A stretch of DNA of 44,818 bases from a virus, in the IMG/VR virus record IMGVR_UViG_3300045988_101875, positions 1 through 44,818 of that record. The stretch is one strand, 5' to 3'. Shown here in pieces: positions 12,961 through 44,818 of the stretch. The position numbers and the translations under genes were made by a program. The notes under the pieces were generated by a model. It searched no databases. It saw nothing but the letters and a program-made list of their open reading frames with translations, and had not been told where the DNA came from. Each line of letters begins with the position of its first letter. Positions within the stretch are counted from its first letter, which is position 1.

Positions 12961-12964
12961 ATGC

Positions 12965-12993
12965 TAATGGGTACACGTAAACGAAGAAAAGAC
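12965..12993 (+). promoter_or_regulatory. Conserved 28-bp element, copy 3.
   Basis: taATGGGTACACGTAAAcgaagaaaagac. Confidence 0.45.
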
Positions 12994-17686: not shown

Positions 17687-17688
17687 TT

Positions 17689-18130: not shown

Positions 18131-18132
18131 TT

Positions 18133-20149: not shown

Positions 20150-20675
20150 TATTTATGCATTTCTCTATGGTAGTGGAGACAAAAATCTTGGCAAGCTTCT
20201 TGGTGGTGATGAAGCTATGGGCAAGAAAGCAAAGAATAAGTTTCTGAAGGCTACCCCTGCTATCAAGATGCTGCGTGAAGCTGTCAAGAATACACTTGTG
20301 GTTGAGTACCACGGCAAAATTAAAGAATGGAAACGAAAATATTTAAGAGGGTTGGATGGCAGACATCTCCATGTGAGAAGTCTACATTCAGCTCTCAATT
20401 TGCTTTTACAGTCCTGTGGTGCATTGATATGTAAAAAATGGACTGTAACTTGGGAAGAAAATATGGTGAAGGCTGGCTATGACCATGGCAAAGACTTCTT
20501 TTGGATGGCAAATATTCATGATGAATCCCAAATAGCCTGCCGTACTAAAGAGATAGCTGAAGATGCTAGCCGAATTGCCCAAGAATCTATGAGACAAACA
20601 CAAGAATATTATGGAATCAGATGCCAATTAGATACCGAGGGAAAGATTGGTCAAAATTGGTATGATTGTCATTGA
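20150..20675 (+). CDS. DNA polymerase exon 2 (motifs B and C, C-terminus).
   Basis: IYAFLYGSGDKNLGKLL...VHDESQIACR...LDTEGKIGQNWYDCH aligns with the T7 gp5 C-terminus (...LDTEGKMGPNWAICH). Confidence 0.88.
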
Positions 20676-30144: not shown

Positions 30145-30519
30145 ATGAGAGAGGAAGACAGACTAGAGTGGTATTATGCTTCAGGCTGTTCTTTTGGTCT
30201 CACCCCTGTTCTAGAGTTGAAAGATGCTTTGTGTCTTTATGATGATGAGACACACAAGGTCTATGCCGTTGGTGGTATTGAAGCTGACTTAATATGGGTT
30301 GTCTGCACTACAGAAGTAGACAAGCACCCTATTAAATTCCTACGCTTCTGTAAACCTTTTTTCAAGAAGTGGGTACAATGGCATGTCAGCAATTATGTAT
30401 GGATGAAGAATATCAAACATATCAGATGGCTCACATGGTTAGGTGCTAAATTCTACAAATACAAAGAAATCAATGGAGAGCCATTTCAGAAATTTAGTTT
30501 ATATCCGGCAAAGGAGTGA
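30145..30519 (+). CDS. Internal virion protein (gp13-like), putative.
   Basis: Position and size only. Confidence 0.4.
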   Translation: MREEDRLEWYYASGCSFGLTPVLELKDALCLYDDETHKVYAVGGIEADLIWVVCTTEVDKHPIKFLRFCKPFFKKWVQWHVSNYVWMKNIKHIRWLTWLGAKFYKYKEINGEPFQKFSLYPAKE

Positions 30520-30525
30520 TGTCTT

Positions 30526-31170
30526 ATGTGCAGTCCTATGGTGGCTGCTGGTATCAGTACAGGCTTGCAAGTAGCAGGTGACTACATGGGGCAACGTGCG
30601 CAAGCTAAGGCAGCACAGGCTACCATGAACGCACAGGCTAAGGCAGCTATTACTGAAATGAATTGGAATATTATGGATTTAGAACAGCAGCGCACAGATG
30701 CCTTTGACCAAGCTGTTGTAGAGATTAGCAACACTAGGTTGAACTCTATGCAACTCAATAGTGGTGTAAAGGCTGCTGTGAACGAGACCATGAGCGGACG
30801 TACTGCCAACCTCATTGTACGTGCTGCCGAAGGTGATACCGCTCGTGCTGTGTCCTCTATCCAAGACAACTATAAACGGAAATCTAATGAGGTTGACTTG
30901 AATCGTGAGCGTCAGGTAAAATCCACTCACGAATATTTAGAGAACCTTAATGCTTCTGCTCCTAAGATGCCTAGTAGATTCACTAACTTATTGTCTTCTG
31001 CTGCAACAGGCTTGAATAATTATACACAAGCTAAGAATATTATGAATCAGCAGAAGATTACAGGTGGTGTTAGTAAAACAGCTAAAAATGCTACTAAGAC
31101 ATGGGTAGGCAACGCTCCACGTAGCGTCCATGAGAAGCTAGGTATTGGCAATGGTATTTATAGGAGGTAA
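30526..31170 (+). CDS. Internal virion protein B (gp14-like), putative.
   Basis: Position and size. N-terminal hydrophobic segment. Confidence 0.45.
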   Translation: MCSPMVAAGISTGLQVAGDYMGQRAQAKAAQATMNAQAKAAITEMNWNIMDLEQQRTDAFDQAVVEISNTRLNSMQLNSGVKAAVNETMSGRTANLIVRAAEGDTARAVSSIQDNYKRKSNEVDLNRERQVKSTHEYLENLNASAPKMPSRFTNLLSSAATGLNNYTQAKNIMNQQKITGGVSKTAKNATKTWVGNAPRSVHEKLGIGNGIYRR

Positions 31171-31175
31171 GAAGA

Positions 31176-33266
31176 TTGAGTAAAGAAGTACAGGCAGCGG
31201 TAGGTACTCAACGGCAGTTTGCAAAACAACCGGAGATTCCCTATGCGCTGTCCTTAAATAAATTCAATGCATCTACAGGTATCTCACAACGTACAGATTT
31301 AGATGCACAACGCTTAGCATCATCTTTAGGTCTCCTTGGTAAGAATATCATGGAGGAGCGTATTGCTGATGAGAAGCGTACCCAAGACCAAGCAGTATTG
31401 GTCAATGCAGACAAACTCCTTGCAGGTAAGACACAAGAAGACCTGAAGAAGTTTGACCGCATGGCAGCTTTGCAGAACTCTAGTGCTGATTTTGACTTGA
31501 CAGATAACCGCTATGCTATGGCTGTTCTTGAAAAAGGTATTGGTAAGATGGCAAGCCAATATGCCAAAGAGCAATGGGCAAATGACCCTGCTTCTGAAAA
31601 GCCTAAGAGTGTATCTGAAGCTGTTAGTCTTTTCAATAAGTATCTACAGGAGAACAGAGCTAACTTCAGTGATGATGGTATCTCTAATAAGGTAGCATTT
31701 GACCAAGGCTATTATGAGGGTGCTGTTCAAGACACAATAAAAATAGCTAATGAAGCTGACAAGAGAATCAATGATGATAAACGTCAGAAGATGGTCATGT
31801 TAGGTTTTAGTGAGTTTCAAGACCTTGTGTATAGTGGAGCTAAGGGTGAAGACTTCCTCACTCGTGGTAATGAAGCATTGCGTAAGGTGCAATTAGGTGC
31901 TAGAGATAGAGATGGCTTCATTAAAGCTGTTGCCCCTCTTGCTCAGATGATTGCTGACCAAGATTTTGATACAGCAAGATTGGATGCCTTAGGTGACTAT
32001 CAATACGAAGATGGTTTGTCTTTAAAGCAGATGGTTAACCTCTATCCCTCCTATACCAAGATAGCAGATAACTTCAATCTGAGAGTTACCGATGATATTG
32101 TGTCTAAATGCACCCGTCCTGATGGTACTGTTGACCTCTCAAAAGCTGAAGCATTGTTGTCTCAGTTACCTACGGAAACTACAAATGCTGATGGTATTCC
32201 TGAAGCTAACCTGCCTATCTCGCAGGGAGACAACCCCGACTTAGCAGACCTGTCCCCCACTATGAAAAGTGTGTTACCTATGGTTGGCGGTGCTATCTAT
32301 CAGTTAGGCTTTAAGGATGCACAGATTACTAGTGGCTACCGCACGGCAGAACATAATGCATCTGTGGGCGGTGTACCAAACTCAGAGCATACCCAAGGCA
32401 ATGCTGTGGATATTTATTTAGGTGACAATGTGGATGAAGCACAGGCTAATAAAGCATTGTCTTATTTTAAGCAATACTTTGGTGAGGTCTTATTCCATGA
32501 TGCTGGCACAGGTAGACATCTGCATCTTGCTGATTACCATGGTGGTATGAAAGCTGCTAACCCTAAAGAGCAATCTGCTGCTGCCTATAACCCCCAACGT
32601 GTCAATAAGATACGTCAGGCTGTCTATGCTAAACAAGCACAGGCTCAGCGTGTTAAGGCTCAACGTGATGCTGAGGAAAGAGACCGAATCAATATGGCTC
32701 TTTTGCAGACCAATGACCCCAACGAGCAATTACAGATTATTAATAGCTCTAATTTACCAGCAGCAACTAAGGCTACGATGGCTCGTACTATTACACGCCA
32801 AGCACGTCAGGCTGCTAAAGGCTATGGTAATGATGCAGAAGCTAAACATTTTTGGTCATATGAAAATGGCTATCAATATATCAAAGACACTCAGACATAT
32901 GCTGAATGGTATAAAGCTTATCAAGACCCTGATGTTGATGGTGATTCTGATGAGTATAAGGCTTTACAAAAGAGAGCTAATAGAGCCACAGCAAGGCTTA
33001 ATGCCTTGTTAGAGTTCAAAAAGAAACGTGGGTATATCCCTAGTGAGCAGGAGACAACACCGGCTAATGAACCTCCTGATGATACCCCTATGTTCTCTCA
33101 GAAAGACAAGGATATTGCTGAAATGAAGATATGGGCAAACAGTAATCCTAAAAATTCTGCTGGCGTACCCCTAGATGAAGACCAAATACGTGATGCTATT
33201 GATAAGTTTGCTATACGTAATGGTCTTGATGTGAATGATATTGAGGAGGAGGTCTTTGGTTCATAA
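31176..33266 (+). CDS. Internal virion protein C (gp15-like) with an embedded peptidase-M15 (VanY/L-Ala-D-Glu peptidase-like) domain.
   Basis: TSGYRTAEHNASVGGVPNSEHTQGNAVDIY motif (about 32330-32420). TTG start with SD taggaggta. Confidence 0.65.
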   Translation: MSKEVQAAVGTQRQFAKQPEIPYALSLNKFNASTGISQRTDLDAQRLASSLGLLGKNIMEERIADEKRTQDQAVLVNADKLLAGKTQEDLKKFDRMAALQNSSADFDLTDNRYAMAVLEKGIGKMASQYAKEQWANDPASEKPKSVSEAVSLFNKYLQENRANFSDDGISNKVAFDQGYYEGAVQDTIKIANEADKRINDDKRQKMVMLGFSEFQDLVYSGAKGEDFLTRGNEALRKVQLGARDRDGFIKAVAPLAQMIADQDFDTARLDALGDYQYEDGLSLKQMVNLYPSYTKIADNFNLRVTDDIVSKCTRPDGTVDLSKAEALLSQLPTETTNADGIPEANLPISQGDNPDLADLSPTMKSVLPMVGGAIYQLGFKDAQITSGYRTAEHNASVGGVPNSEHTQGNAVDIYLGDNVDEAQANKALSYFKQYFGEVLFHDAGTGRHLHLADYHGGMKAANPKEQSAAAYNPQRVNKIRQAVYAKQAQAQRVKAQRDAEERDRINMALLQTNDPNEQLQIINSSNLPAATKATMARTITRQARQAAKGYGNDAEAKHFWSYENGYQYIKDTQTYAEWYKAYQDPDVDGDSDEYKALQKRANRATARLNALLEFKKKRGYIPSEQETTPANEPPDDTPMFSQKDKDIAEMKIWANSNPKNSAGVPLDEDQIRDAIDKFAIRNGLDVNDIEEEVFGS

Positions 33267-36200
33267 TGAGTATTATTGAGGATTTAAATAAACTTGGTGA
33301 TGAATCATATGGTGATTTACAAGCCAAGGGTGAAGAACAGCTCCAAAAGATACAGCACCAAGGCTATAATCCTTTTGATGACTTTGCTGGAGCGGTTACT
33401 GAATGGATTGCAGACATAAATAAATCAGGTCAGAAGCTGGCTGTGGCTGCTGGTGAAGCTTATAAAACAGGTAATTTTGATGCTATTGATGATATGTCTT
33501 TACCTGACACTGATGCTTCTTCCTCTTCTCCTGCACAGGAAAAGGTTGCACAGGCTTTGCAGGATGCTGTGGATGATGCTCGCTATGTGGCTACTAAAGA
33601 CCCCCTTACTCTCGTAGGTGATGTAGCTGGTGCTGCTAGTCCTTGGATTCCCTTAGCTGTTCAAGTACCTATCATGGTACATGAGATGCAAAAGGCACAG
33701 GAAGTTGAAAACGCTCCTGATATGTCTGACCAAGCCAAAGCATCCCTGCTCCCTATGATGGCAGGTACTGTGGCAGCTTCTGTGACACATGGCGTGGGGG
33801 GGCTTTTATCTAAGGCTGCCCCCACAGTCTCTAAGGTTATGACTACACCTTTTGTGGGTAGTGGTATCGCAGCAGGTACAGTTCTTGCTATGGACGAAAA
33901 TGTTCGTAAGTATGCAGAAGAACATCCTGCTCGTTTTGCTGTCAGCCAATTCCTGACAGATACTGCTATTGGTGCTAAAAAGATTGCCAAAGCAGATTGG
34001 TCTGCTAAGACAACCCCTATCACGGATGCAGAGATTGTGTCTGAAAAGACAAACCCTGCTACTGAGGTTATGGCTGATAAGACTAAGGTTGAGGAGACAA
34101 ACAAAAAGTTAGGTTCTCCTACTAAAGAGAAGAATAAAAGAAAACGTAAGCATCGTAAGCAGCATCGTGAGAATGTATGGGATGTTGATAATGACTATGA
34201 GGAGATGGTTACACCTGCTCAGGTTACAAAGCGTGAACCAAAGACAACCGCTGAAAAAGCTTATCCTGAACAGATGCCTGAACAGCAGATGCAACAGGAT
34301 GCTATTGCTAATCAGTTAGCTAAAGAGCATCTCGAAGCTAGACAGACACCTGAAATTATGCAGGGTGCGCATGGTGATGAGCTTAAATATAGTAAAGATA
34401 ATCTCTATCCTCATCCTGTGAGTGCAGAGGATATATGGGAAACTGCAAAGGCTATGTTCCCTATTCGCCCCGGTAGGTTGGATTTAGCTGATAGTGATAG
34501 AACACTAGGCTACTTTATGCCCCATGGTAAGGGTATTCGTATCCGTGGTTTCCGTGCATGGTCTGTAATCTGTCACGAAATCGGACATGGTTTGTCTGAT
34601 AAATTTGGTTGGGGTAAAGATACAGCAGTTCAAAAAGAACTTTATGATGGTGCTACTTCCATATGGCAACATGGTGAGTATGGTAATAGATATGCTCCGG
34701 AAAACTATACTACTTATGTAGAAGAAGGACGTGCTGCCTTTATGAATGAGTATTGTGTCAACCCTGAGATGGCTAAGAAGCACTTCCCTCTTGCCTATGC
34801 TGAATTTGAAAAGGCTATTGCAAGTGATAGATTCTATCAGGCACAGATGAACCTTTTAGGGCAACAGGTGCGTCGATGGGGTTCTCAGTCTGACTTCAGT
34901 AAAGCTGCTGGTATGTTTCATTGGGCAGACAAAGAGCTTGGCAAAAGAATTGATAAACTCATTGGTACTTGGACTGCTACTAAAAAACATTTTGCTTGGG
35001 AGTATGCTGACCTTGACGAAAGCATAAGAGCTTATGAGGATAACCAAGGTGTAAAGATAGCTATGGAGAATGACCCTGCTGTCTTAGCACAGTATGCAAA
35101 GCAAGCAGGTAATGATACTGTTGGTTGTCTTCTGAATGGTAATAATCTAGGCACTAGAGCTGCTGTTAAAATGATGCAGACAAAATTCAATATTGCACTT
35201 AATAATGTTGTAGCTACTGACATCTTGAAACCTTTGGATGCACAAGGTAAGCGTGGTGCTGAACTTCAAAAGTGGCTTAAAGAAACTGAGTACAGAGATT
35301 TTTATGATGCTTGGAATACTTATCAGGTTGCAAAGCATGAGCTGGAAGTCATGGCAACAGGGCGTAAGACAACACACACTTATGCTGAATGTAAGAAAAT
35401 CATTGCTAAAGCAGAAGAACTTCCTGAAATGAAACTTGCTTCTGACCTGTGGAAACAATGGAATGAAAATGTACTGCGCATTGCTGTCGCAGGGCAGATT
35501 CTTCCTAGAGAGGTTGCTAATAAGTTCTTAAAAGAATACCCTGAGTACATTCCTATGACACGCTCATTCGAGATTGAGGGTACTAGTGACTTCTTGGCAT
35601 CCCACAAAGCTATGACTGTTGAGGGGTCTGAACGTATTATTAAAGACCCTCTTGTCCAAGCTGTTAAGAATATGCAGAGTATTGTCACTAAAGTAGAGCG
35701 CAATCGTGTTGGTCTTGCTCTTGCTGATTTAGCTCAGGGTGAAAAGGGGCATTTTCTTATGATGCCTGTAAAAGATGGTAAATACAAGCATGTTTCACAA
35801 ATTATTACTGTTTATGAAGATGGACACCCTAAATACTACCAATGTATGATGAAAGGTCTCTATGAAGCTATGACTTCCGAAGATGGAAATATGAGTGCTT
35901 CTAAACTTGACATTATTGAGAAAATCTCTCATGGCGCAGCAACAGCTTTACGTATTGGCTCTACTAGCACACCTATGTTTGCTACCGCTAACCTCTGCAA
36001 AGATATTCTTGAAGCAACTATTATGAACGCTGATGGGCGTAGTGCTTCTCACATTCCCCTTGTTGCTCCTATGAAAATCTTTTGGCAGGGATTGCAGATG
36101 CTCAATAGTGACAATGCTTTTGGTAAACTTATCATCCGCAACAACAGAGAACGTGCTCTGCTTAGACAATACAAAAGAGAATTTAGGTCTAATGGTGTCA

Positions 36201-37453
36201 CTATGTCCACACGCTTAGGCTCTATTGCTGAAATCAATAAAGACTTTAGGAAAATTGTAGACCCTAACATTAGTGATTCTGTCCTTGATAAAATCTTATA
36301 TCCTATCAAAGTATTATGGAATTGGAATGTAGCATATGGTGAAGCTATGGAACAGTTACCACGTATGGCTCTTTATCGACGTGCTAAAGGACGTGGTGCT
36401 TCTATGATTGAAGCTGCTATGGTTGCTTCTGACAGTACCCTTAATTTTGCGAAGAGTGGTACTACTGTTAAAATTCTTAACAGACATACACCTTTTTTAA
36501 ATGCTGCTTTTCAAGGTACTTTAAAGACAGCTAGAGAGCTTTCTAAAACTCCTCTCAGTGTTGGTCTTGCTATGGCAGAGCATGTACTATTCCCTACCTT
36601 GTTACTGTGGTATTGGAACAAGGATGAAGATTGGTATAAGGACATGCCAATGGAGATGAAGAATAAAGCGTGGTACATCAAGATAGGAGATACTATCTAT
36701 GATTATCCTAAACCCCCCTTTATCGGACAATTATCCGGTTCTATACCTGAGCGATTATTAGATGTTATGTCTGAGGGTGAAGATAAGCAAGTTATTGCTG
36801 ATGCTGTCTATAAGCTCATCAAAGACCTTGCCCCTTCCGGTGCTCCTCCTATCATAGAGAAATTCTATGAATGGCAGACAAACCACTCTATGTATCGTAA
36901 TCGTCCTCTTGTTGACCAACGTCTTGAAAAGCTTAGTCCTAAGAACCAATACAATCAATATACCTCTATGCCAGCACGTTGGATTGGTCAGGCAACTAAC
37001 CTCTCACCTATCAAGATAGACAATACAATCTATGGTCTCACAGGCTCTATGGGTTATGCCCTTATGAATGCTGTGGATACGGTGGCTAGGGATAATATTA
37101 CCCCCAGCAAGAAATGGACTGAATATACTCGCTTTACTTATACTGAGGGTACAGGTACTTCCCGCAGCAAGGATGTATTCTTTGGTGGTCTTGATAAGCT
37201 GGAGACACAATATGCAGATGCCTCTTTTGAGGGTAGGAAGCCTAAGGTGGACAAAGAACTTAAAGGTATGCGTAAAGCTAGGGCAGATGCTATGAAAGTT
37301 TCTAAGGCTATCAGGGAGCTGTATGCAGACAAAACTATGGATGCAGACACTAAGCGTGCTAAACTTGATGAGCTGAATAAGAAACAAAATAGTATTTTCA
37401 GAACTGCCAATAAGAAATACTTAAATTACAAATATATACAAGTCCCAAAATAA
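33266..37453 (+). CDS. Internal virion protein D (gp16-like, 1395 aa) containing an HExxH zinc-metallopeptidase-like motif.
   Basis: Size and position as gp16. ICHEIGHGL motif at 34574-34588. Confidence 0.7.
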   Translation: MSIIEDLNKLGDESYGDLQAKGEEQLQKIQHQGYNPFDDFAGAVTEWIADINKSGQKLAVAAGEAYKTGNFDAIDDMSLPDTDASSSSPAQEKVAQALQDAVDDARYVATKDPLTLVGDVAGAASPWIPLAVQVPIMVHEMQKAQEVENAPDMSDQAKASLLPMMAGTVAASVTHGVGGLLSKAAPTVSKVMTTPFVGSGIAAGTVLAMDENVRKYAEEHPARFAVSQFLTDTAIGAKKIAKADWSAKTTPITDAEIVSEKTNPATEVMADKTKVEETNKKLGSPTKEKNKRKRKHRKQHRENVWDVDNDYEEMVTPAQVTKREPKTTAEKAYPEQMPEQQMQQDAIANQLAKEHLEARQTPEIMQGAHGDELKYSKDNLYPHPVSAEDIWETAKAMFPIRPGRLDLADSDRTLGYFMPHGKGIRIRGFRAWSVICHEIGHGLSDKFGWGKDTAVQKELYDGATSIWQHGEYGNRYAPENYTTYVEEGRAAFMNEYCVNPEMAKKHFPLAYAEFEKAIASDRFYQAQMNLLGQQVRRWGSQSDFSKAAGMFHWADKELGKRIDKLIGTWTATKKHFAWEYADLDESIRAYEDNQGVKIAMENDPAVLAQYAKQAGNDTVGCLLNGNNLGTRAAVKMMQTKFNIALNNVVATDILKPLDAQGKRGAELQKWLKETEYRDFYDAWNTYQVAKHELEVMATGRKTTHTYAECKKIIAKAEELPEMKLASDLWKQWNENVLRIAVAGQILPREVANKFLKEYPEYIPMTRSFEIEGTSDFLASHKAMTVEGSERIIKDPLVQAVKNMQSIVTKVERNRVGLALADLAQGEKGHFLMMPVKDGKYKHVSQIITVYEDGHPKYYQCMMKGLYEAMTSEDGNMSASKLDIIEKISHGAATALRIGSTSTPMFATANLCKDILEATIMNADGRSASHIPLVAPMKIFWQGLQMLNSDNAFGKLIIRNNRERALLRQYKREFRSNGVTMSTRLGSIAEINKDFRKIVDPNISDSVLDKILYPIKVLWNWNVAYGEAMEQLPRMALYRRAKGRGASMIEAAMVASDSTLNFAKSGTTVKILNRHTPFLNAAFQGTLKTARELSKTPLSVGLAMAEHVLFPTLLLWYWNKDEDWYKDMPMEMKNKAWYIKIGDTIYDYPKPPFIGQLSGSIPERLLDVMSEGEDKQVIADAVYKLIKDLAPSGAPPIIEKFYEWQTNHSMYRNRPLVDQRLEKLSPKNQYNQYTSMPARWIGQATNLSPIKIDNTIYGLTGSMGYALMNAVDTVARDNITPSKKWTEYTRFTYTEGTGTSRSKDVFFGGLDKLETQYADASFEGRKPKVDKELKGMRKARADAMKVSKAIRELYADKTMDADTKRAKLDELNKKQNSIFRTANKKYLNYKYIQVPK

Positions 37454-37484
37454 TGTGGTATAATACTTATTGGGAGTGATGCTT

Positions 37485-37829
37485 ATGCAAAGATTTAAGA
37501 TAAAAAATGTGGAGAAGTATTTAACTATCATTGTTTGGACGATGCTAATCTCAGTTGTATTTTGCATAATATTTGACATAGAGGGTTCAAAAGTTTTTGT
37601 AGATGTTGTGACAGGAGGTTTTGTCTATCTTTTCTTTGGTAGTTTTGCATTTTGCATAGTAGTTATGATAGTCTCTTTTCTTTTTAATGCTATTTGTGAG
37701 ATACGTAAAAAGAAAGACAATAAACTTATCGCTACTATATCTCTTATCCTTTTTCTTATATTCTTTGCTATTACATTTATTTTTGATAGTGGCATAGATA
37801 TTCCCTATGCTCGCTTCTATGCTAGATAA
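37485..37829 (+). CDS. Small multi-pass membrane protein (3-4 TM), AT-rich; looks like an acquired moron.
   Basis: Hydrophobic segments LTIIVWTMLISVVFCIIF, VYLFFGSFAFCIVVMIVSFLF and LIATISLILFLIFFAITFIF. SD gggagtg 6 nt upstream of ATG 37485. Confidence 0.55.
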   Translation: MQRFKIKNVEKYLTIIVWTMLISVVFCIIFDIEGSKVFVDVVTGGFVYLFFGSFAFCIVVMIVSFLFNAICEIRKKKDNKLIATISLILFLIFFAITFIFDSGIDIPYARFYAR

Positions 37830-37917
37830 CATTCTCCCCGAGGTGATTCCAATGTACAGCCACTAACTCCATACCTACCCTTGTTCCTTTTCCATCCAAT
37901 GAAAGGAGTTCTGTCCC

Positions 37918-38472
37918 ATGGAATTAAGTGCTGATATTCAACGTGAAATACAGCAACAGTTTAAAAATAGCTATGCCCAACTTTTAGCGGACATAACTCG
38001 TATCTATGAGCAGGGTGCTATGCGTGATGCCCTCACAGGACTGTACAATAAGCAAGCCTTTGAGCGTGACAGTACCACTAATCACTTTGGTTTCGTTGGT
38101 ATCCTTTTCGCAGACATCAATGGTCTGAAATATACCAATGACCACTTTGGACACAGTGCAGGGGATAAACTGATAAAGGACTTTGCAGCTAAGCTTAAGG
38201 AAACCTTTATCTCCCCTATTTATAACTGTTATCATATATCAGGTGATGAGTTTATAGTAGCTGGGTTTGATATTAAAATCCACGAGTTTCTTGGAAGTGT
38301 GTTGTCTTTCCATAAGTCCCTATGGGATAAAGACAACCCTCCCCTAGCTGCTTTAGGCTACTCTGCTGGTGTCTTCTCAGATATTGCAGAGATTACAGAG
38401 TGCGCAGAAAAAGCAATGTATGAAGACAAACAAAAATTTTATGATAATTTTCCTCAGATGAGGAGACAATAA
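37918..38472 (+). CDS. Stand-alone GGDEF-domain protein (diguanylate-cyclase-like). The catalytic motif reads SGDEF, and it has no sensor domain and no I-site.
   Basis: RDALTGLYNKQAF, DINGLKYTNDHFGHSAGD and HISGDEFIV align to the PleD/WspR GGDEF domain. SD aaaggag 10 nt upstream. Confidence 0.75.
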   Translation: MELSADIQREIQQQFKNSYAQLLADITRIYEQGAMRDALTGLYNKQAFERDSTTNHFGFVGILFADINGLKYTNDHFGHSAGDKLIKDFAAKLKETFISPIYNCYHISGDEFIVAGFDIKIHEFLGSVLSFHKSLWDKDNPPLAALGYSAGVFSDIAEITECAEKAMYEDKQKFYDNFPQMRRQ

Positions 38473-38483
38473 ATTGAATTGTG

Positions 38484-38522
38484 ACCGCTGGCTCTTTAAG
38501 AGCTGGTGGTCTTTTTATTTTT
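38484..38522 (+). terminator. Weak hairpin plus T-tract upstream of the tail fiber gene.
   Basis: gctggctctttaagagctggtgg followed by ctttttattttt; imperfect stem. Confidence 0.3.
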
Positions 38523-38531
38523 GTAAAGGAG

Positions 38532-40229
38532 ATGATTAATATAGCTATTAAATTGGCAACCTCCATTACTTACACAGCAGATGGTTCTCAAACGAATTTC
38601 TCTATTCCCTTTGATTACCTACGCCCTTCCTTTGTGCATGTGGCTGTGAATGATGCTGAGGTATCTGAAGGATTCACTGTAAGTAATCGTGGAATTATGT
38701 TTGATACTGCTCCTGCAAAGGATGCCCTTGTCAAAATTTATCGTAAGACCCCTACCTCTCGTTTGGTGTCTTGGGCAGATGCTAGTATCCTGAAAGCTAT
38801 AGATATGACTATTGCAGAAGTGCAACAGTTGCATATCTTAGAGGAAACTTCTGATTGGACTAAGACAAACTCTATGGCACTCAATGATGAGGGTACTGCA
38901 TGGCAGGGTTGGAAGCATCGTATAGAAAATGTTGCTGACCCTGTGGATGCACAGGATGTTGTAACCAAACACTACTTAGACAACGAAGAAGGTTCGTTCA
39001 CAGCAACAATGAACGCCCTTAAAACCAAGACAGAAGAAGCTGCAAGTACCGCAGAAACCAATGCCAAACAAGCACGTTTTAATGCGGAGAAGGCTGATTC
39101 TGCTGCTGTTGGTGCAGAGCGTGATGCTGCAACTGCTTTGAAGTCTGCAAACAATGCAAAGACTAGCGAAACCAATGCTGACACCAGCAAAGAAGCAGCA
39201 CAAACTGCTGCTACCAATGCAGGTAACTTTGCAACTAGCGCAAGTCAGAGTGCTAATGAAGCTCAAAATTATCGAGATGCTGCAAAAAACTATGCAACTA
39301 ATGCTAAGAATTATAGTGAGAATGTCAATGTATTTGTCCCTAGTGTATCTACGGATGGTGTCTTAAGCTGGTCTAATAAAGCAGGACTTACTAACCCTCC
39401 CTCTGTGAACATTAAGGGTAAAGATGGTGCTGATGGTGGTGTAACTGTTGATGATGCCCTCTCTGATACCTCTACTAATGCTATTCAGAACAAAGTAGTA
39501 AAAGCTGCACTTGATAACAGAGCAGTGCTTGATGAAGCTAACACTTTTACTTCTCCTAATAGATTTGATGATATTTATATGGCAGATGGCATGAGTAGTC
39601 TTAAGTGGTATAATGGTTCGCCTAACTTTGTTGTTGCTTCTATCAATTCTGAAAGATACACAGGTGAAGCAAACACGGCAAAGAAAGCATCAAAAGACAG
39701 TGCAGGTAATGTAATTACTGATACTTACGCTACCAAAACAGAACTCAATAGCTGTGTTAAGACTGTTAATAATGTTGCCCCGGATGCTAGTGGTAATGTC
39801 AATATTACTGCTAGTGGTGGAGGCAGTAGTAGTAATGGTGTAAGCCTATCGGCACAGAACACATGGACAGCCCAACAGACCTTTGATATTGCATTGTTAG
39901 AGTTTGAAAAATATGTAACTGCATACGATAGTGGTACATCTCTCACGCCCATGAAATCTACTGCTGTCTATACAGCAACAGGTAACTTTACGCTGGACTT
40001 AACAACAGATACTTATTTACTTAGTAATGGACAATCACAGGTGCTTACAGTCTACATTAAGTCAAGTGCGGACTATGCGTTAACCTTAAAGGGAGCAGGA
40101 ACAGTTAAATATATTGGAGCTGCATCCGATTTAGCAATCACTAGCACAGGATTATTGCTCAACATCCTTATGATGTCTGATAGCAGCGGTGGCATTACAA
40201 GCATCGTACAGGCATCCAAGTTATCATAA
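38532..40229 (+). CDS. Tail fiber protein (T7 gp17-like).
   Basis: MINIAIKLATSITYTADGSQTNFSIPFDYL aligns with T7 gp17 MANVIKTVLTYQLDGSNRDFNIPFEYL. Central Ala/Asn/Thr-rich coiled coil. Confidence 0.85.
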   Translation: MINIAIKLATSITYTADGSQTNFSIPFDYLRPSFVHVAVNDAEVSEGFTVSNRGIMFDTAPAKDALVKIYRKTPTSRLVSWADASILKAIDMTIAEVQQLHILEETSDWTKTNSMALNDEGTAWQGWKHRIENVADPVDAQDVVTKHYLDNEEGSFTATMNALKTKTEEAASTAETNAKQARFNAEKADSAAVGAERDAATALKSANNAKTSETNADTSKEAAQTAATNAGNFATSASQSANEAQNYRDAAKNYATNAKNYSENVNVFVPSVSTDGVLSWSNKAGLTNPPSVNIKGKDGADGGVTVDDALSDTSTNAIQNKVVKAALDNRAVLDEANTFTSPNRFDDIYMADGMSSLKWYNGSPNFVVASINSERYTGEANTAKKASKDSAGNVITDTYATKTELNSCVKTVNNVAPDASGNVNITASGGGSSSNGVSLSAQNTWTAQQTFDIALLEFEKYVTAYDSGTSLTPMKSTAVYTATGNFTLDLTTDTYLLSNGQSQVLTVYIKSSADYALTLKGAGTVKYIGAASDLAITSTGLLLNILMMSDSSGGITSIVQASKLS

Positions 40230-40241
40230 AGAGGTGACAAT

Positions 40242-40694
40242 ATGGGACTTAATCGCTTATTTATGTACAAAAAGACAGATAGTGGCAGCGGAGGTGGTGG
40301 TACTGAAACACCGGAGAATGTTTTTACCATGACGATGGGGCAGCAAGGTTCACAATTTGGTTATAGTAGATACAATGCAACCATCGGTGAAGTTGAAGGT
40401 GAGGTGTACCATGACGGCAAAGCAGTAACTCTTGTAATGATGAGCTATTATGGTGGTTGGCTTGACGTAGCTTTTAAGGTAGACGGAGTAACGAGTGGTA
40501 GTTATAATATCAATCTCAACCTCACGCCTATGGAAACAGGTGTTACTGTAAATTTAGCGGTAGGCAAGATTTCCTATGGTGGTGCTAGTACAGGTTTTTA
40601 TACATATGTCCAAAAAGTACCCTCAAATATCTCTAGTATGTTTACTGCTGCTAACGTGGGAAAGAAATTTAGAGTCGAAATTATCTTTAACTAA
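40242..40694 (+). CDS. Hypothetical beta-rich protein downstream of the fiber gene (possible receptor-binding accessory protein).
   Basis: Position only. Confidence 0.4.
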   Translation: MGLNRLFMYKKTDSGSGGGGTETPENVFTMTMGQQGSQFGYSRYNATIGEVEGEVYHDGKAVTLVMMSYYGGWLDVAFKVDGVTSGSYNINLNLTPMETGVTVNLAVGKISYGGASTGFYTYVQKVPSNISSMFTAANVGKKFRVEIIFN

Positions 40695-40703
40695 GGAGGA
40701 CAA

Positions 40704-41207
40704 ATGAAAACAACCTATACATATAAAAATAAAGACTACACAACCTTCCGAGAGCTTTCTGAAACTCTAGGCAAAGATGGCATCTTTATCCCTCTGTCTA
40801 TTTCCGAGGAATCCCTTAAAGACTTAGGTGTCACTATAACCACCGAAGAAGAAAGTCTTGAAAGTATCAAAGAACACAAGATTCTTACTCTTAAGATTCA
40901 ACGTGATAACTTAGAGGTAGAACCAATTACTTACCAAGGCTATGCTTTTGACTATGACAGCAAGGCAAGAGATAGAATCAGTGCTGCTATTATTGCTCTT
41001 GAAGTGGCAGGTTCTTCTGCCCTGCTCACATGGACTACCACAGACAATCAAGATGTAAAAGTATCTGCATCTGACCTGCGTGGTGTTATTGCACAGGTTG
41101 CGTTGAGAAGTGATAAACTTCACACAGCTTATAGAAAAGCTAAGGAAAAAGTCGAAGCTGCTACAACTAAAGAAGAAGTTGAAGCTGTTGAATTAATTAT
41201 GGAATAA
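40704..41207 (+). CDS. Tail-fiber-assembly-like protein (DUF4376-like C-terminus).
   Basis: C-terminal ...LTWTTTDNQDVKVSASDLRGVIAQVALRSDKLHTAYRKAK...EEVEAVE pattern. Located after the fiber gene. Confidence 0.45.
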   Translation: MKTTYTYKNKDYTTFRELSETLGKDGIFIPLSISEESLKDLGVTITTEEESLESIKEHKILTLKIQRDNLEVEPITYQGYAFDYDSKARDRISAAIIALEVAGSSALLTWTTTDNQDVKVSASDLRGVIAQVALRSDKLHTAYRKAKEKVEAATTKEEVEAVELIME

Positions 41208-41229
41208 AAAGACAGGGTTGTTGTCTTTT
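41207..41229 (+). terminator. Hairpin aaaagaca/tgtctttt (7-nt loop) after the fiber-assembly gene; possible terminator.
   Basis: The U-tract is part of the stem, so this is not a classical terminator. Confidence 0.35.
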
Positions 41230-41269
41230 CCCTTTAGGGGTTTATGGGTGGGCAGAAAGGATTTTTATT

Positions 41270-41506
41270 ATGGAAAAGAATCGTAAAAAGGCTCGTGCTT
41301 GGCTTAAGTCCTCTACTCTCACTGAGTACAAGGCAATCACAACAGAAGCTAAGCTCACACCAAGACAACAAGACATCCTTGACAAAATCATCATTAGTGA
41401 CTACTCCCAGCAAAAGCTTGCTATGGAGTACCACGAGGATGTGTCTTGTATCAAACGTGCCTTAAGACAAATATATGACAAAGTATATCTTGTCCTTTTC
41501 AAGTAA
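41270..41506 (+). CDS. GerE/LuxR-type (sigma-70 region-4-like) stand-alone HTH protein.
   Basis: LTPRQQDILDKIIISDYSQQKLAMEYHEDVSCIKRALRQIYDKV matches the LuxR/sigma-r4 HTH pattern. 78 aa. Confidence 0.55.
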   Translation: MEKNRKKARAWLKSSTLTEYKAITTEAKLTPRQQDILDKIIISDYSQQKLAMEYHEDVSCIKRALRQIYDKVYLVLFK

Positions 41507-41580
41507 CTTTATAGACATTTAGTTACAACTTTCAATTCCTTAATTCATGTTATCATAATAGCAGGAGGTGACTAGTCACT

Positions 41581-41763
41581 ATGCAATATAACATGAACCA
41601 AAACAAACTTATGCAAATGATGATGATGCAAGCCTTGAAACAGGTTTCTCCTGAACTGTTAGCAATGGTTGAGGAAGAAGCTCGTAAGCGTGGGATGTCG
41701 AATGAAGACATCAACGCAGGTAAAGCGTACATCAACCAAGTTCAAAAAGGAGTTGAAAAGTAA
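41581..41763 (+). CDS. Hypothetical Met-rich small protein.
   Basis: SD aggaggtg. Confidence 0.4.
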   Translation: MQYNMNQNKLMQMMMMQALKQVSPELLAMVEEEARKRGMSNEDINAGKAYINQVQKGVEK

Positions 41764-42299
41764 TGGAAATGGCTAATGCTGGCGTAGGTCTCGGTGATGC
41801 CCTGATGCTCGCCAAACAAGGTTCTAATGGTAATGAGATGTGGAATAACCCCTTTGTTTACCTTATCCTCTTAGCTGCCTTTGGCGGTGGCTTTGGTGGT
41901 TTCGGTGGTTGGGGTGGCAATGGTTCTGCTTTCCAAGGCACTGTAACTCGTGCAGAACTGTCTGAAGGCTTAGACAACCAAGACATCAAAGCTAGTCTGC
42001 GTGGTATCCAAAGCGGTTTATGTGATGGCTTCTACACTGTAGGCATGAACGAAAAAGAAACCGGATACAAAGTAGCTAGTGTTGGTGAGAGTATCAATCG
42101 TAACATTGATGCCCTGCGCTTTGAGGGTGCTGCAAACACCTGTAAGGTTACCACCGCCATCCATGAGGAAGGTGAGAAAACTCGTGCTCTGATTACCTGC
42201 AACACTATGCAAGCTCTGCGTGATAAGCTGGCAGATAAGGATAGAGAACTGCTCTATCTGAAACTTAAGTTACCTGCTACCACTACTGCTACTGCATAA
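41763..42299 (+). CDS. Membrane protein with Gly-rich TM segment (FVYLILLAAFGGGFGGFGGWGG) and C-terminal coiled coil; possible spanin or other lysis component.
   Basis: Topology read from the sequence. Lies in the lysis-gene neighbourhood. Confidence 0.4.
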   Translation: MEMANAGVGLGDALMLAKQGSNGNEMWNNPFVYLILLAAFGGGFGGFGGWGGNGSAFQGTVTRAELSEGLDNQDIKASLRGIQSGLCDGFYTVGMNEKETGYKVASVGESINRNIDALRFEGAANTCKVTTAIHEEGEKTRALITCNTMQALRDKLADKDRELLYLKLKLPATTTATA

Positions 42300-42306
42300 T
42301 GTTACC

Positions 42307-42340
42307 GAGGGTTGGCTAGAAGCTGACCCTCTTTTATTTT
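42307..42340 (+). terminator. Rho-independent terminator.
   Basis: 10-bp stem gagggttggc/gctgaccctc (two G-U pairs), then ttttatttt. Confidence 0.7.
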
Positions 42341-42355
42341 ATTATGGAGGATATT

Positions 42356-42526
42356 ATGGACAATGAAATTGTAAAGACAACCCCTCCTATTGGTGTCTCC
42401 ACCCTATCCCTCATGGGCATCCCTCTGTCCGATTGGGTGTATATTGTCACCATTATGTATGTCTTGATTCAGATTTGGGTCTTGTTGTATAAGACCTTTT
42501 TTAAAAAGGAGGAATGTAATAAGTGA
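42356..42526 (+). CDS. Holin-like small membrane protein.
   Basis: TM segments. Immediately upstream of and overlapping the endolysin. SD ggagga. Confidence 0.45.
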   Translation: MDNEIVKTTPPIGVSTLSLMGIPLSDWVYIVTIMYVLIQIWVLLYKTFFKKEECNK

Positions 42527-42879
42527 AATTATCTGCTCATTTTGATTCTAGTGAATTTGCCTGTAAATGTGGCTGTGGTGGTCTCCACAATGGTGCTGAC
42601 ATCAATCCACGGCTTGTACAGGTATTAGAGCGTATGCGTGCTATCATTGGCAAGCCTTTGGTGCTGTCCTGTGGTTACCGCTGTCCTGCCCACAATGCTG
42701 AGGTAGGTGGCGTGTCTAACAGCCAGCATATCTATGGTACTGCTGCGGATGTGCAATGCCCTGATGGTGTTATGTTGCAGACTTTGTATGATGCTGCAGT
42801 AACTGCAGGTGCTGATGGTATTGGTATCTATAGCTGGGGTGTCCATGTGGATGTCCGTGGCTATCCTGCACGTTGGTAA
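42523..42879 (+). CDS. Endolysin, peptidase M15 (YcbK/DUF882-like zinc D,D- or L,D-peptidase).
   Basis: FDSSEFACKCGCGG...PLVLSCGYRCPAHNAEVGGVSNSQHIYGTAADV motif. GTG start with SD aaaggagg. Confidence 0.75.
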   Translation: MKLSAHFDSSEFACKCGCGGLHNGADINPRLVQVLERMRAIIGKPLVLSCGYRCPAHNAEVGGVSNSQHIYGTAADVQCPDGVMLQTLYDAAVTAGADGIGIYSWGVHVDVRGYPARW

Positions 42880-42886
42880 GATTTAC

Positions 42887-42916
42887 GAGGGAGCTTAGTC
42901 TCCCTCTTTTATTTTT
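42887..42916 (+). terminator. Rho-independent terminator after the endolysin.
   Basis: gagggag/ctccctc stem, then ttttattttt. Confidence 0.7.
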
Positions 42917-42935
42917 AAAGGAGGTCTATATAGAT

Positions 42936-44818
42936 TTGAAAATTAAGAAACGTGATGGGTCTCTCGTAGACTTTAATAAAGACAAAATTATTAATGCTAT
43001 CTCTAAGGCTGGCTTTGTAGCTTCAAAGACAAAAAATGCTATTGCTGATGTTGTTGAAAAGATGGCAAAAAAAGAAACACTAACTGTGGAAAAGATACAA
43101 GATATTGTGGAAACTGAGCTTATGCTGAACTATTACCCTGAGGTAGCTAGAGAATATGTTCGCTATCGCTATAAACGTGAGCTTATCCGTAATACCAAAG
43201 GTGCTTTGAGTGAAGTGCTTGAAATTGTCAACCTCAGCAACCAAGATGTGAATGAGGAGAACTCTAATAAGAACCCTGTTATTTTGTCGACCCAACGTGA
43301 CTATATGGCAGGTATGGTCTCTAAAGAGCTTTCTGAAAAGCTGTTGTTCCCTCCGGATGTAATGAAGGCACATAAAGCAGGTATCATCCATGTGCATGAT
43401 ATGGACTATGCTATCCAAAAGATGTACAACTGTGCTCTGTTAGACATGGAAGACATGCTCCAAAATGGCACTGTAATCAATGGTACGATGATTGAAAAGC
43501 CACATAGCTTTGCTACTGCTTGCAATATTGCTACTCAGATTATGGCACAGGTCGCTTCTAACCAATATGGTGGGCAAAGTGTGTCGGTAGCACATTTAGC
43601 TCCTTTTGTCAATACCTCTAGACAAAAAATTAAAGAAGAAGTTAAGCAGGAACTAGAAGATATTCAGGCAGAGTATTGTGAGACAGACTTAGACTATATC
43701 ACAGAAAAGCGATTGAAAGCTGAAATCACTAAGGGTGTACAGACAATGCAATATCAGATTAATACCCTTATGACATCCAATGGTCAGACACCCTTTGTTA
43801 CCTTATTCTTATATCTTAATGAAGCTAAGAACGAGCAGGAGAAGAAAGACCTTGCTATGGTGATTGAGGAAATCATCCGTCAACGCTATCAGGGTGTCAA
43901 GAATGAAAAGGGTGCATGGATTGCTGCTGCGTTTCCTAAGCTGATTTATGTCTTAGAGGAAGACAACATCCGTAAGGGTACACCCTATTATTACCTCACA
44001 GAGATGTGTGCTAAATGTACTGCTAAGCGTATGCAGCCTGATTATTTGTCTGAGAAGATTATGCTGAAGAACAAGAAGACTGAAGATGGTGTGGGTCACT
44101 GCTATCCACCTATGGGATGCAGAAGCTTCTTGACACCCTATCTTGATGAGAATGGTAAAGCTAAATTCTATGGTCGCTTCAACCAAGGTGTTGTCTCCAT
44201 CAACCTTGTGGATGTGGCGTTGTCCGCTGGTAAAGACAAAAATAAATTTTGGTCTATTCTTGATGAGCGTTTGGAGTTGTGCCATAAAGCCTTACGTGTA
44301 AGACACCAAAACCTTAAAGGTACAATCTCTAATGTCTCCCCTATCCATTGGCAATATGGTGCTATTGCTCGTCTGCAAAAAGGTGAGAAGATTGACAAGC
44401 TGTTGGAAAATGGCTACTCCACTATCTCCCTTGGCTATGCAGGTCTCTATGAGTGTTGTATGGCAATGTTCGGTAAATCTCATACTGACCCTACTGTGAA
44501 ACCCTTTGCTCTCTCTGTCATGCAACATCTTAATGACAAATGTGCTGAATGGAAAGCTAAGGAACATTTAGGCTATAGTGTCTATGGTACTCCTATGGAG
44601 ACCACCACATATAAGTTTGCGAAGTGTCTTCGTGACCGCTTTGGGGTAATCAAGGAAGTCACTGACCATGATTACATTACCAATAGCTATCATGTGAATG
44701 TCCGTGAACCTATTGACCCCTTCACCAAACTGCAATTTGAATCTGAGTTTCAACTGCTCAGTCCGGGCGGTGCTATTAGCTACATTGAGTGTGCTGATAT
44801 GACCAAGAATATTGATGC
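42936..44818 (+). CDS. nrdD: Anaerobic ribonucleoside-triphosphate reductase NrdD, N-terminal and main part; continues at 1..254.
   Basis: TTG start with SD aaaggagg. N-terminal ATP-cone KIKKRDGSLVDFNKDKIINAI. Frame open to the window end. Total length 693 aa including the wrap. Confidence 0.85.
   Translation, partial: MKIKKRDGSLVDFNKDKIINAISKAGFVASKTKNAIADVVEKMAKKETLTVEKIQDIVETELMLNYYPEVAREYVRYRYKRELIRNTKGALSEVLEIVNLSNQDVNEENSNKNPVILSTQRDYMAGMVSKELSEKLLFPPDVMKAHKAGIIHVHDMDYAIQKMYNCALLDMEDMLQNGTVINGTMIEKPHSFATACNIATQIMAQVASNQYGGQSVSVAHLAPFVNTSRQKIKEEVKQELEDIQAEYCETDLDYITEKRLKAEITKGVQTMQYQINTLMTSNGQTPFVTLFLYLNEAKNEQEKKDLAMVIEEIIRQRYQGVKNEKGAWIAAAFPKLIYVLEEDNIRKGTPYYYLTEMCAKCTAKRMQPDYLSEKIMLKNKKTEDGVGHCYPPMGCRSFLTPYLDENGKAKFYGRFNQGVVSINLVDVALSAGKDKNKFWSILDERLELCHKALRVRHQNLKGTISNVSPIHWQYGAIARLQKGEKIDKLLENGYSTISLGYAGLYECCMAMFGKSHTDPTVKPFALSVMQHLNDKCAEWKAKEHLGYSVYGTPMETTTYKFAKCLRDRFGVIKEVTDHDYITNSYHVNVREPIDPFTKLQFESEFQLLSPGGAISYIECADMTKNID

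Follow-up and report, generated by a model that had tools for sequence, protein, structure and literature searches.

Two extra genes between the gp16-like and tail fibre genes

The DNA analysed here (the window) is the 44,818-nt IMG/VR virus record IMGVR_UViG_3300045988_101875, the genome of a T7-like phage. Between its gp16-like gene and its tail fibre gene lie a gene for a small membrane protein, here called TM-A, and a gene for a stand-alone GGDEF-domain protein. Both open reading frames (ORFs), of 114 and 184 amino acids (aa), had been pointed out in a sequence-only reading of the window, and both are present. The left flank is formed by the gene for a gp16-like internal core (ejection) protein (33266–37453; 1395 aa; LPD38 domain, Pfam PF18857, 108 bits). 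A candidate host-type promoter (37435–37464) overlaps the end of this gene and consists of TATACA, 18 nt, and the TG-extended −10 element TGGTATAAT (37456–37464), which starts 3 nt past the gp16 stop; in a consensus scan it scored 10 of 12, with the TG in addition. The TM-A gene (37485–37829) has its ATG at 37485, 8 nt downstream of the Shine-Dalgarno (SD) sequence GGGAG, and codes for three predicted transmembrane (TM) helices. It is followed by a leader element (37840–37866) with the 17-nt block GGTGATTCCAATGTACA (37842–37858) and a mini-ORF (37852–37866), and then by the gene for the diguanylate-cyclase-like enzyme with an SGDEF motif (37918–38472; ribosome-binding site AAAGGAG 9 nt upstream), referred to below as the cyclase. 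A predicted intrinsic terminator (38483–38521), made up of a 13-bp G+C-rich hairpin (38483–38511) and TTTTTATTTT, precedes the right flank, a T7-type tail fibre gene (38532–40229; PF03906, 104 bits) whose product starts with MINIAIKLATSITYTADGSQTNFSIPFDY and aligns to the fibres of relatives. All these features are on the plus strand. The sequence-only reading had described a two-gene insertion; the insertion stands, whereas its extent was drawn too narrowly, as promoter (37435–37464), mini-ORF (37852–37866) and terminator (38483–38521) belong to the cassette as well, up to the fibre ATG at 38532.

To compare this junction among relatives, 80 IMG/VR loci were collected via the C-terminus of gp16 and sorted by their downstream content. 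The order small TM ORF(s), 17-nt block, GGDEF gene, fibre gene was seen in all relatives with at least 86% gp16 identity and also in a group with 42–50% identity (L136–L140). In a sister clade (L141–L150, L171), with gp16 42–44% and the fibre N-terminus 50–56% identical to the window, the gp16 stop is followed by 45–300 nt of non-coding DNA containing a hairpin, and then by the fibre gene. For this lineage, the premise of a direct passage from gp16 to the fibre gene in T7-like phages thus holds. As judged by sequence comparison, the block is a true insertion, since the two genes found in the close relatives are missing from the sister clade, which gives the presence-absence comparison proposed in the sequence-only reading a clear outcome.

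The two genes differ in base composition. The G+C content (GC) of the TM-A gene is 0.30 compared to about 0.40 in its neighbours, and at third codon positions (GC3) it is 0.25 compared to 0.29–0.36; ATA accounts for 10 of its 19 isoleucine codons but for 16% in structural genes. The AT-rich codon usage remarked on earlier is thus real, and the AT-richness of the gene lies in part in amino-acid composition (GC at second positions 0.27) and in part in codon choice. The GGDEF gene has the composition of the phage background (GC 0.40, GC3 0.36). Of the features by which morons are recognised, extra DNA relative to related phages is present at this junction, a deviant base composition is found in the TM-A gene and not in the GGDEF gene, and an own promoter and terminator are present at the sequence level, the terminator being possibly ancestral.

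Both putative transcription signals are conserved. The sequence TGnTATAAT is retained in 36 of 43 junction copies across relatives; the −35 region overlaps gp16 coding sequence, and its conservation is uninformative. Elements of the TGnTATAAT type also lie directly 5' of the GGDEF homologs of L015 and L016, which represent two other phage backbones, and a plain TATAAT is found in a third (L014). We infer that the TG-extended −10 element acts as a host-type promoter for the cassette. The hairpin with TTTTTATTTT begins ten bases past the GGDEF stop and is the best-scoring terminator-like site in the region from 33 to 43 kb. Its 15 sequence variants in relatives all fold into hairpins of 11–15 bp with a T-run, compensatory changes included. 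A conserved promoter on the 5' side and a covarying hairpin terminator on the 3' side would together delimit a moron-like unit.

The GGDEF protein is a predicted diguanylate cyclase

The GGDEF protein matched Pfam PF00990 with an E-value of 2e-14 and 54.1 bits (cutoff 23.8), residues 34–173 covering positions 1–157 of the 161 in the model, and NCBIfam TIGR00254 with 56.6 bits (cutoff 37.4); further NCBIfam matches include GdpS and LapD-type models. An AlphaFold2 model (pLDDT 90.2) consists of a 30-residue N-terminal stalk helix (residues 5–34) followed by a GGDEF fold. In a Foldseek search against the PDB, the top 50 matches were all GGDEF-domain proteins, nearly all of them diguanylate cyclases (DGCs), with a probability of 1.0. 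Matches spanning both stalk helix and domain were SiaD (7e6g), DgcB (6ttr), WspR and the GCN4-WspR fusion (3i5c). The Pfam search and the structure prediction had both been named as checks in the sequence-only reading, and both came out in favour of a GGDEF protein. For a second ORF of 184 aa in the window (3625–4179), no relation to it was found.

The characteristic motifs read RDALTGLYN, D66-I-N-G-L-K71...N74-D-H-F-G-H79 and S108-G-D-E-F112. Conservation of individual residues was assessed in two sets, an alignment of 22 family members and 49 phage copies of full length (35 distinct proteins). The following positions were invariant in both sets, apart from one D66N and one S108L exchange: (i) D66, the metal-binding Asp (D327 in PleD); (ii) K71, the P-loop Lys (K332); (iii) N74 and D83, the guanine-reading pair (Asn335 and Asp344); (iv) H79, a conserved His; (v) GDEF with the acidic pair D110 and E111; (vi) K171, the C-terminal Lys (K442). 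The catalytic set D66, K71, D110, E111 and K171 is thus complete in 22 of 22 family members and in 48–49 of the 49 phage copies. The second acidic residue of the GGDEF motif serves as general base, and an Asp at the position of D83 marks GTP-specific enzymes while a Ser (Ser348 in GacA) marks the Hypr type, which produces cyclic GMP-AMP (PMC6456294). Asp83 is invariant, and GTP specificity is therefore predicted.

Several positions depart from the consensus. The signature reads Y-H-I-S-G-D-E-F instead of the canonical R-x-G-G-[D/E]-E-F, with His106 at the position of Arg366 in PleD; SPIY stands where RxxD would be, and no sensor domain is present. The RxxD inhibitory site (I-site), located five residues N-terminal to the GGDEF motif, is absent throughout the phage family, which places the protein outside the feedback-inhibited subclass. 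What the sequence-only reading had listed for this protein (a stand-alone domain with the quoted residues, SGDEF, His for Arg, neither RxxD nor sensor) was borne out in full by Pfam, NCBIfam and the alignment. Four departures are family-wide: Ser stands at the position of Gly368, His at that of Arg366, Tyr175 at that of Arg446, and Lys45 at that of the cross-dimer Arg. They could alter the activity or the product. They are also what speaks for a degenerate or re-purposed GGDEF domain, in which the SGDEF/His106/Tyr175 variant would yield some other nucleotide or would regulate by binding nucleotides or proteins; one of them, Arg to His, precedes the motif by two residues. There are well-known examples of non-catalytic GGDEF proteins, and models of the GdpS and LapD type were among the NCBIfam matches. 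We nevertheless consider such a degenerate protein improbable. Degenerate GGDEF domains usually lose just those catalytic residues that are invariant here under strong purifying selection, namely the metal-binding Asp, the P-loop Lys, the general-base Glu and the guanine-reading Asn and Asp. The Asp at the Hypr position, with its predicted GTP specificity, points the same way, and the C-terminal DKxxFY is shared with relatives that have canonical GGDEF and RxGG motifs (P0026, P0027). Moreover, active DGCs with an SGDEF motif have been documented (PMC9683572).

Pairwise dN/dS values of the cyclase ranged from 0.05 to 0.14; in the unsaturated pair formed by the window and L001, dN was 0.020 and dS 0.236. 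The GGDEF domain retains 68–73% aa identity where the C-termini of gp16 retain only 44–52%, so that the cyclase is more conserved than the adjacent gp16. Its 90% identity cluster comprises 962 member sequences. Judged by these substitution patterns, the cyclase is under strong purifying selection and is the conserved cargo of the cassette.

Two copies were found to be decayed in phages that are otherwise intact and have kept a small membrane protein gene of another family (TM-B, see below): in L126 a 45-aa remnant is left and the 17-nt block is lost, and in L129 the gene is frameshifted. The cyclase is thus dispensable for phage propagation.

Taken together, fold and residues predict a DGC that makes cyclic di-GMP (c-di-GMP). 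Since the sensor is lost, an I-site is lacking and the stalk helix is kept, the enzyme is expected to be constitutively dimeric and free of product inhibition.

Relatives of the cyclase with a PAS-like domain

Database homologs of the cyclase fall into two groups, namely forms of 183 aa resembling that of the window and forms of 280–300 aa. In the alignment the short form keeps the first approximately 23 residues, the linker and the catalytic domain, and lacks about 100 residues of the long form. The additional domain of the long form has a PAS-like β2-α-β3 fold, with a LOV-DGC (8c05) and the PAS-GGDEF-EAL protein PA0861 (5xgb) as best full-length structural matches; it did not match any Pfam model. 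Alignment and structure models thus indicate that the window cyclase is a PAS-deleted derivative of a mobile phage PAS-GGDEF gene.

Long forms occur in diverse contexts: in other T7-like relatives with a TM gene upstream (L006, L018), in a phage with a giant polyvalent protein (L014), in a serine-recombinase temperate phage beside its lysis genes (L015), in another tailed phage (L016), and, immediately downstream of smpB and the tmRNA gene, on a bacterial contig (L010, 4485–5871; 49% identical). The homologs in the three other phage backbones and beside the tmRNA gene have no multi-TM neighbour. The smpB/tmRNA locus is a classic integration hot spot, and the chromosomal copy may be a relic of a mobile element. 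That the TM ORF might once have been the N-terminal part of a GGDEF protein anchored in the membrane, from which it became detached, was considered and rejected, as the N-terminal domain of the long homologs is soluble, PAS-like and devoid of TM helices.

Other cargo was observed in phages with long homologs. In L015 an Abi_2 (abortive-infection) gene (4019–5005) lies a few kb upstream of the PAS-GGDEF homolog and adds another accessory or defence gene to the cargo of this late region. In a related phage (L008, 3048–6155; L009, 2601–5708), genes for a DUF6273 protein and a reverse transcriptase (RVT_1) are located just 3' of the fibre genes, which suggests a diversity-generating retroelement acting on a receptor-binding protein.

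Exchangeable membrane proteins upstream of the cyclase

For TM-A the sequence-only reading had allowed three or four TM helices; three hydrophobic segments were found (residues at about 14–31, 44–70 and 82–101). No Pfam, PHROG, PADLOC or NCBIfam family matched above threshold. The loops comprise at most 14 residues and have no domain match, i.e. there is no nucleotide-sensing domain. By the positive-inside rule, the N-terminus is predicted to be cytoplasmic and the C-terminal tail periplasmic. This tail (DIPYARFYAR, encoded at 37787–37826; pattern D-[IV]-P-Y-x(3-6)-[FY]-x-R) is the only part kept between family members of 29% identity; the cytoplasmic parts are tiny and unconserved. Between phages whose GGDEF domains are 70–73% identical, TM-A proteins are 26–31% identical, with omega at about 0.55–0.7 and dS saturated.

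The position between promoter and 17-nt block is a variable slot occupied by at least five small-TM families or stacks that are unrelated to one another. It holds TM-A (114–120 aa, three TM) in the window and about 15 loci; TM-B (73–77 aa, two TM; 145 aa in L018) in about 14 loci; TM-C (55 aa, two TM) in L113 and L130; TM-C stacked before TM-A in the prophage L020 and in L100; TM-D (84 aa) with TM-E (71 aa) in L112; and TM-F (148–152 aa) with TM-D (84 aa) and TM-E (71 aa) in L114, L116 and L136–L138. The five alternative slot proteins did not match any Pfam or PHROG family. Within one cluster of 30 GGDEF proteins of at least 97% identity, five slot architectures were found, and identical cyclase cores stand behind TM-B in L132 and behind TM-D and TM-E in L112. 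Mean cyclase identity was 0.903 for pairs with the same architecture and 0.894 for pairs with different architectures. Because slot type does not track the GGDEF tree and identical cyclases stand behind different TM genes, these comparisons indicate that the TM gene is an exchangeable passenger and not a partner of the cyclase.

How such exchange might take place can be seen in L020 (7231–7530; also in L100, 9670–9837), where an extra 55-aa ORF with two TM helices is followed by a foreign gp16 3' remnant of about 38 codons and a second copy of the promoter. In L020 the remnant (7400–7530) sits between TM-C and TM-A as a recombination scar, and the gp16 end with the promoter is thus taken as an exchange anchor of the slot; the last approximately 40 codons of the gp16-like gene form the left recombination anchor.

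The uncoupling of TM genes and cyclases bears on two explanations in which both proteins act together. According to the first, put forward in the sequence-only reading, the pair resembles the cyclic-oligonucleotide-based antiphage signalling system (CBASS) and Pycsar: a nucleotide signal triggered by infection would activate the small membrane protein, which then kills or arrests the cell. A cyclase beside a small multi-TM protein in one transcription unit is reminiscent of some CBASS and Pycsar operons, and every cyclase of the T7-like clade has one or more small TM genes upstream. We give this explanation hardly any credence. Besides the five architectures behind GGDEF proteins of at least 97% identity and the near-equal mean identities given above, the TM families are mutually unrelated and lack a soluble sensing domain, and homologs elsewhere have no TM neighbours. 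Neither protein matched PADLOC at E-values up to 0.1, a GGDEF protein is not a CD-NTase or a Pycsar-type cyclase, and a sensor-less, apparently constitutive cyclase is incompatible with an infection-triggered suicide signal. The locus teaches that a nucleotide cyclase beside a small TM gene is insufficient to call a CBASS-like system.

According to the second explanation, the TM protein is a membrane scaffold that brings the soluble cyclase to the inner membrane or makes it dimerise there, and so stands in for the lost PAS domain. It draws on the TM gene always being co-transcribed upstream, on the free N-terminal amphipathic helix kept by the cyclase, and on known small activator proteins of DGCs, the SiaC-SiaD structure 7e6g being the top fold match. 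We regard it as very unlikely, since unrelated TM families with one to four TM helices would all need to bind the same helix and the cytoplasmic parts of TM-A offer little for this purpose. Further, the PAS-containing versions in L006 and L018 also carry an upstream TM gene, which therefore does not compensate for loss of the PAS domain.

An invariant leader with a mini-ORF

The leader consists of an SD-like GAGGTGA, a 5-nt spacer and the mini-ORF ATG TAC AGC CAC TAA (MYSH and stop). The 17-nt block GGTGATTCCAATGTACA showed no mismatch in 51 of 52 loci, with identity of the flanks down to about 65%. The mini-ORF has three to four codons, MYSH in the window and MYSY, MYN or MYSD elsewhere, and synonymous changes are seen in it (AGC/AGT for Ser, AAT/AAC for Asn). 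The block occurs once in the window genome. Among 42 exact matches in IMG/VR, 39 lie upstream of this GGDEF gene, and the other three are chance matches. The leader had no Rfam match at gathering or permissive thresholds, and no conserved RNA structure or covariation among relatives. We read it as part of the cyclase unit, putatively a translated mini-ORF or a site of ribosome loading.

Three other functions were rejected: (i) a promoter of the phage RNA polymerase, given that the 17-nt block is unique in the genome and that other, repeated motifs are better candidates; (ii) a riboswitch or structured RNA, for want of an Rfam match, conserved structure or covariation; (iii) a widespread mobile linker, as 39 of the 42 exact matches represent this same locus.

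Phage genome, host and lifestyle

The window is a complete circular assembly of about 44.76 kb; bases 1–55 recur identically at 44764–44818. It encodes T7-like replication proteins (single-subunit RNA polymerase, primase-helicase, single-stranded DNA-binding protein, endonuclease I, a split family-A DNA polymerase and exonuclease) and virion and packaging proteins (portal, scaffold, capsid, tube, nozzle, gp13, gp14, fibre and terminase), together with a gp15-like protein with an M15 peptidase domain and the gp16-like protein with its LPD38 domain. A holin and an M15 endolysin are encoded elsewhere in the genome, a pattern also seen in relatives, and the membrane proteins of the slot are therefore not lysis genes. 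No close phage relative was found in GenBank by megablast.

A tyrosine integrase gene (4551–5717) is located on the opposite strand. A 114-kb contig of a metagenome-assembled genome (MAG) assigned to Phascolarctobacterium carries a copy, 92–94% identical, of window positions 30270–44818 and onward. Integrase gene and prophage copy establish that the phage is temperate, as the sequence-only reading had assumed. A 237-kb contig named uncultured Phascolarctobacterium at NCBI holds a member of the TM-A cluster. On the basis of these MAG contigs, the host is probably Phascolarctobacterium (Negativicutes); an exact look-up of the window integrase for integrated copies returned no record. Phascolarctobacterium, a Negativicute, possesses an outer membrane, in keeping with a T7-like podovirus. 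Relatives of the phage originate from human-gut metagenomes. T7-like prophages of Negativicutes were not found described in the searchable literature; LUZ100 is a precedent for a temperate T7-like phage (PMC10134795). A literature search on c-di-GMP in Phascolarctobacterium yielded nothing.

Further observations concern other parts of the genome. The family-A DNA polymerase locus (18133–20675) is divided into two ORFs (18133–19470 and 20136–20675) with an Endonuclease VII-type gene (19490–20068) between them, and looks like a homing-endonuclease insertion or a split polymerase. Clusters of CTATAGATAC-type repeats (families D4, D8, D9 and D13) are located 3' of the terminase gene, past the integrase region and directly past the RNA polymerase gene (3191–3406, 6144–6166 and 12828–12850). 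Given a faint likeness to the T7 promoter core ACTATAG, they could be phage promoters or genome-end repeats. The 28-nt motif TGCTAATGGGTACACGTAAACGAAGAAA occurs in three copies around the RNA polymerase gene (10129–10156, 12780–12807 and 12962–12989), two of them identical, and may be a regulatory or promoter element. The close relative L100 carries a gene for an anaerobic ribonucleotide reductase NrdD with ATP-cone and glycyl-radical domains (16228–18393) between endolysin and terminase, where the window has three unannotated minus-strand ORFs (43080–44567); this position is thus a second variable cargo region.

Proposed role of the cassette

The reading to which we lean, with somewhat more confidence for than against it, is that of a moron cassette in which a c-di-GMP synthase expressed from the prophage is lysogenic-conversion cargo and the membrane protein is an independent, exchangeable passenger. 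Host RNA polymerase with a sigma-70/SigA-type factor would transcribe the cassette from the prophage at the extended −10 promoter. The transcript would comprise, in this order, the gene for the small inner-membrane protein, the leader with its translated mini-ORF and the gene for the 184-aa GGDEF enzyme, and would end at the hairpin terminator. The cyclase, which could dimerise via its stalk helix, would condense two GTP into c-di-GMP. Expected to be constitutive and product-insensitive, it would raise the c-di-GMP level of the lysogen and thereby shift envelope, adhesion or biofilm traits, with phage receptors possibly masked. The TM protein would act independently at the inner membrane, most likely in superinfection exclusion or on the envelope in the manner of HK97 gp15, and not as a receptor for the product of the cyclase. 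A lysogenic-conversion or exclusion module had also been suggested in the sequence-only reading; this remains the best description of the cassette as a whole, but not of a coupled pair of cyclase and membrane protein.

Several observations weigh against the moron reading, in addition to the consensus departures of the enzyme. As the cassette is embedded in the late structural operon and shares its strand, phage RNA polymerase would transcribe it in lytic growth, too. In base composition the GGDEF gene does not stand out from the rest of the phage, which makes it an old resident. As a hairpin is found at this junction in the sister clade, too, the terminator may predate the insertion and may not have been brought by a moron. 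No PilZ or other recognisable c-di-GMP receptor was detected among the 45 ORFs scanned, nor a riboswitch with Rfam. Finally, every T7-like copy has at least one small TM gene before the cyclase, which stands alone in none. The cyclase may depend in a generic way on a co-transcribed membrane protein; our own explanation for the TM gene that is always there lies in the pair of conserved recombination anchors on either side of the slot.

The position of the cassette and the codon composition of the GGDEF gene could also mean that the cyclase, and perhaps the TM protein, is transcribed with the late genes by phage RNA polymerase and acts mainly in productive infection, where a flood of c-di-GMP would reprogramme envelope or metabolism or exclude competitors before lysis. 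That the cyclase is more conserved than neighbouring essential genes would be expected if it contributed to phage fitness. We consider a mainly lytic effector rather unlikely. A conserved host-type extended −10 promoter just upstream in the T7-like clade, of the same type as at homologs in two other backbones, would be unneeded for late expression, and the decayed copies in the intact phages L126 and L129 argue that the gene is dispensable for growth. Lysogenic and lytic roles of the cyclase are not mutually exclusive.

More speculatively, leader, sensor-less cyclase and changing membrane proteins might form an exclusion island in which prophage c-di-GMP is itself the immunity signal. c-di-GMP might then gate the membrane protein that happens to occupy the slot, or alter the diderm envelope in such a way that related T7-like phages could not form their ejectosome channel (gp14–16), and the leader of three to four codons would tune cyclase translation to the translational or tRNA state. 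This we regard as a long shot; if true, it would be a virus-encoded superinfection-exclusion mechanism based on a cyclic dinucleotide.

The cyclase is a clean test case, i.e. a small, soluble protein stripped of sensor and feedback site and more constrained than the adjacent virion gene. It is abundant in human-gut metagenomes, and its carrier is a prophage of Phascolarctobacterium, a common gut commensal. If it is active, a virus is able to dictate how much of a second messenger its gut host contains, and through this how the host behaves at its surface and in the community. The locus is a good starting point for experiments on how a virus might directly control c-di-GMP in such a commensal. 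The hypervariable TM slot and the invariant mini-ORF leader pose two more tractable questions.

Comparison with known systems

The closest structural counterparts of the cyclase are DGCs with a stalk helix, namely C. crescentus DgcB (6ttr), P. aeruginosa SiaD (7e6g), WspR, the constitutively dimeric GCN4-WspR fusion (3i5c) and PleD. They have the same fold (Foldseek probability 1.0, E about 1e-10), the metal-binding, phosphate-binding, general-base and guanine-reading residues in common, and an N-terminal helix directly before the DxLTG turn. The window cyclase differs in its Ser (SGDEF), His, Tyr and Lys substitutions and in the lack of an RxxD I-site and of a receiver or sensor domain, and its sequence identity to the solved structures is only 17–25%. 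PAS/LOV-GGDEF sensor cyclases (8c05; PA0861, 5xgb) share the two-domain architecture of the 280–300-aa relatives (P0007–P0024), whereas the window lineage has lost about 100 residues of the PAS core. The resemblance to CBASS and Pycsar operons is superficial and confined to gene order: the window cyclase belongs to a different superfamily and is apparently constitutive, the TM protein has no nucleotide-sensing domain, and the pairing is neither conserved nor matched in PADLOC.

The anatomy of the cassette matches the definition of a moron, of which HK97 gene 15 is an example; located within the tail operon, this gene codes for a small protein of the inner membrane that acts in superinfection exclusion (PMC3594210). 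Common to both are extra DNA in a late structural operon, an own promoter and terminator, and a first gene of deviant GC for a small inner-membrane protein. The window differs by having two genes instead of one, a T7-like instead of a lambdoid backbone, a hypervariable slot and a perhaps ancestral terminator. In Pfam and PHROG searches, neither TM-A nor the five alternative slot proteins showed homology to HK97 gp15/YebO, P22 SieA or any other known superinfection-exclusion protein; the likeness would be functional and architectural only.

E. coli DgcX is encoded by a DGC gene hitch-hiking beside lambdoid prophages (PMC4287979). Like the window cyclase, it travels with a temperate phage and is expected to raise the c-di-GMP level of its carrier, but it is a DGC with a membrane sensor whose I-site is intact, and it is located next to the prophage instead of within it. 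Indirect interference of phages with c-di-GMP is also known: phage peptides raise it via the host protein YfiN (PMC8085984). The statement in the sequence-only reading that a phage-borne GGDEF module is not a described system went too far with respect to annotation: GGDEF genes are present in 115 GenBank phage records (tblastn), among them Pseudomonas YuA-like phages and Bacillus phage G, with a best identity of 25–33% to any GenBank phage, and seven PHROG families without an assigned function match the window protein. With respect to function, no characterised phage-encoded DGC was found in the literature. The GGDEF family, morons and DGC genes riding with prophages are thus already known, whereas the following are new: the location of such a cassette within the structural operon of a T7-like phage that is temperate and infects a Negativicute, a predicted cyclase of PAS-deleted, I-site-less SGDEF/His form, a hypervariable slot for small TM proteins, and an invariant mini-ORF leader.

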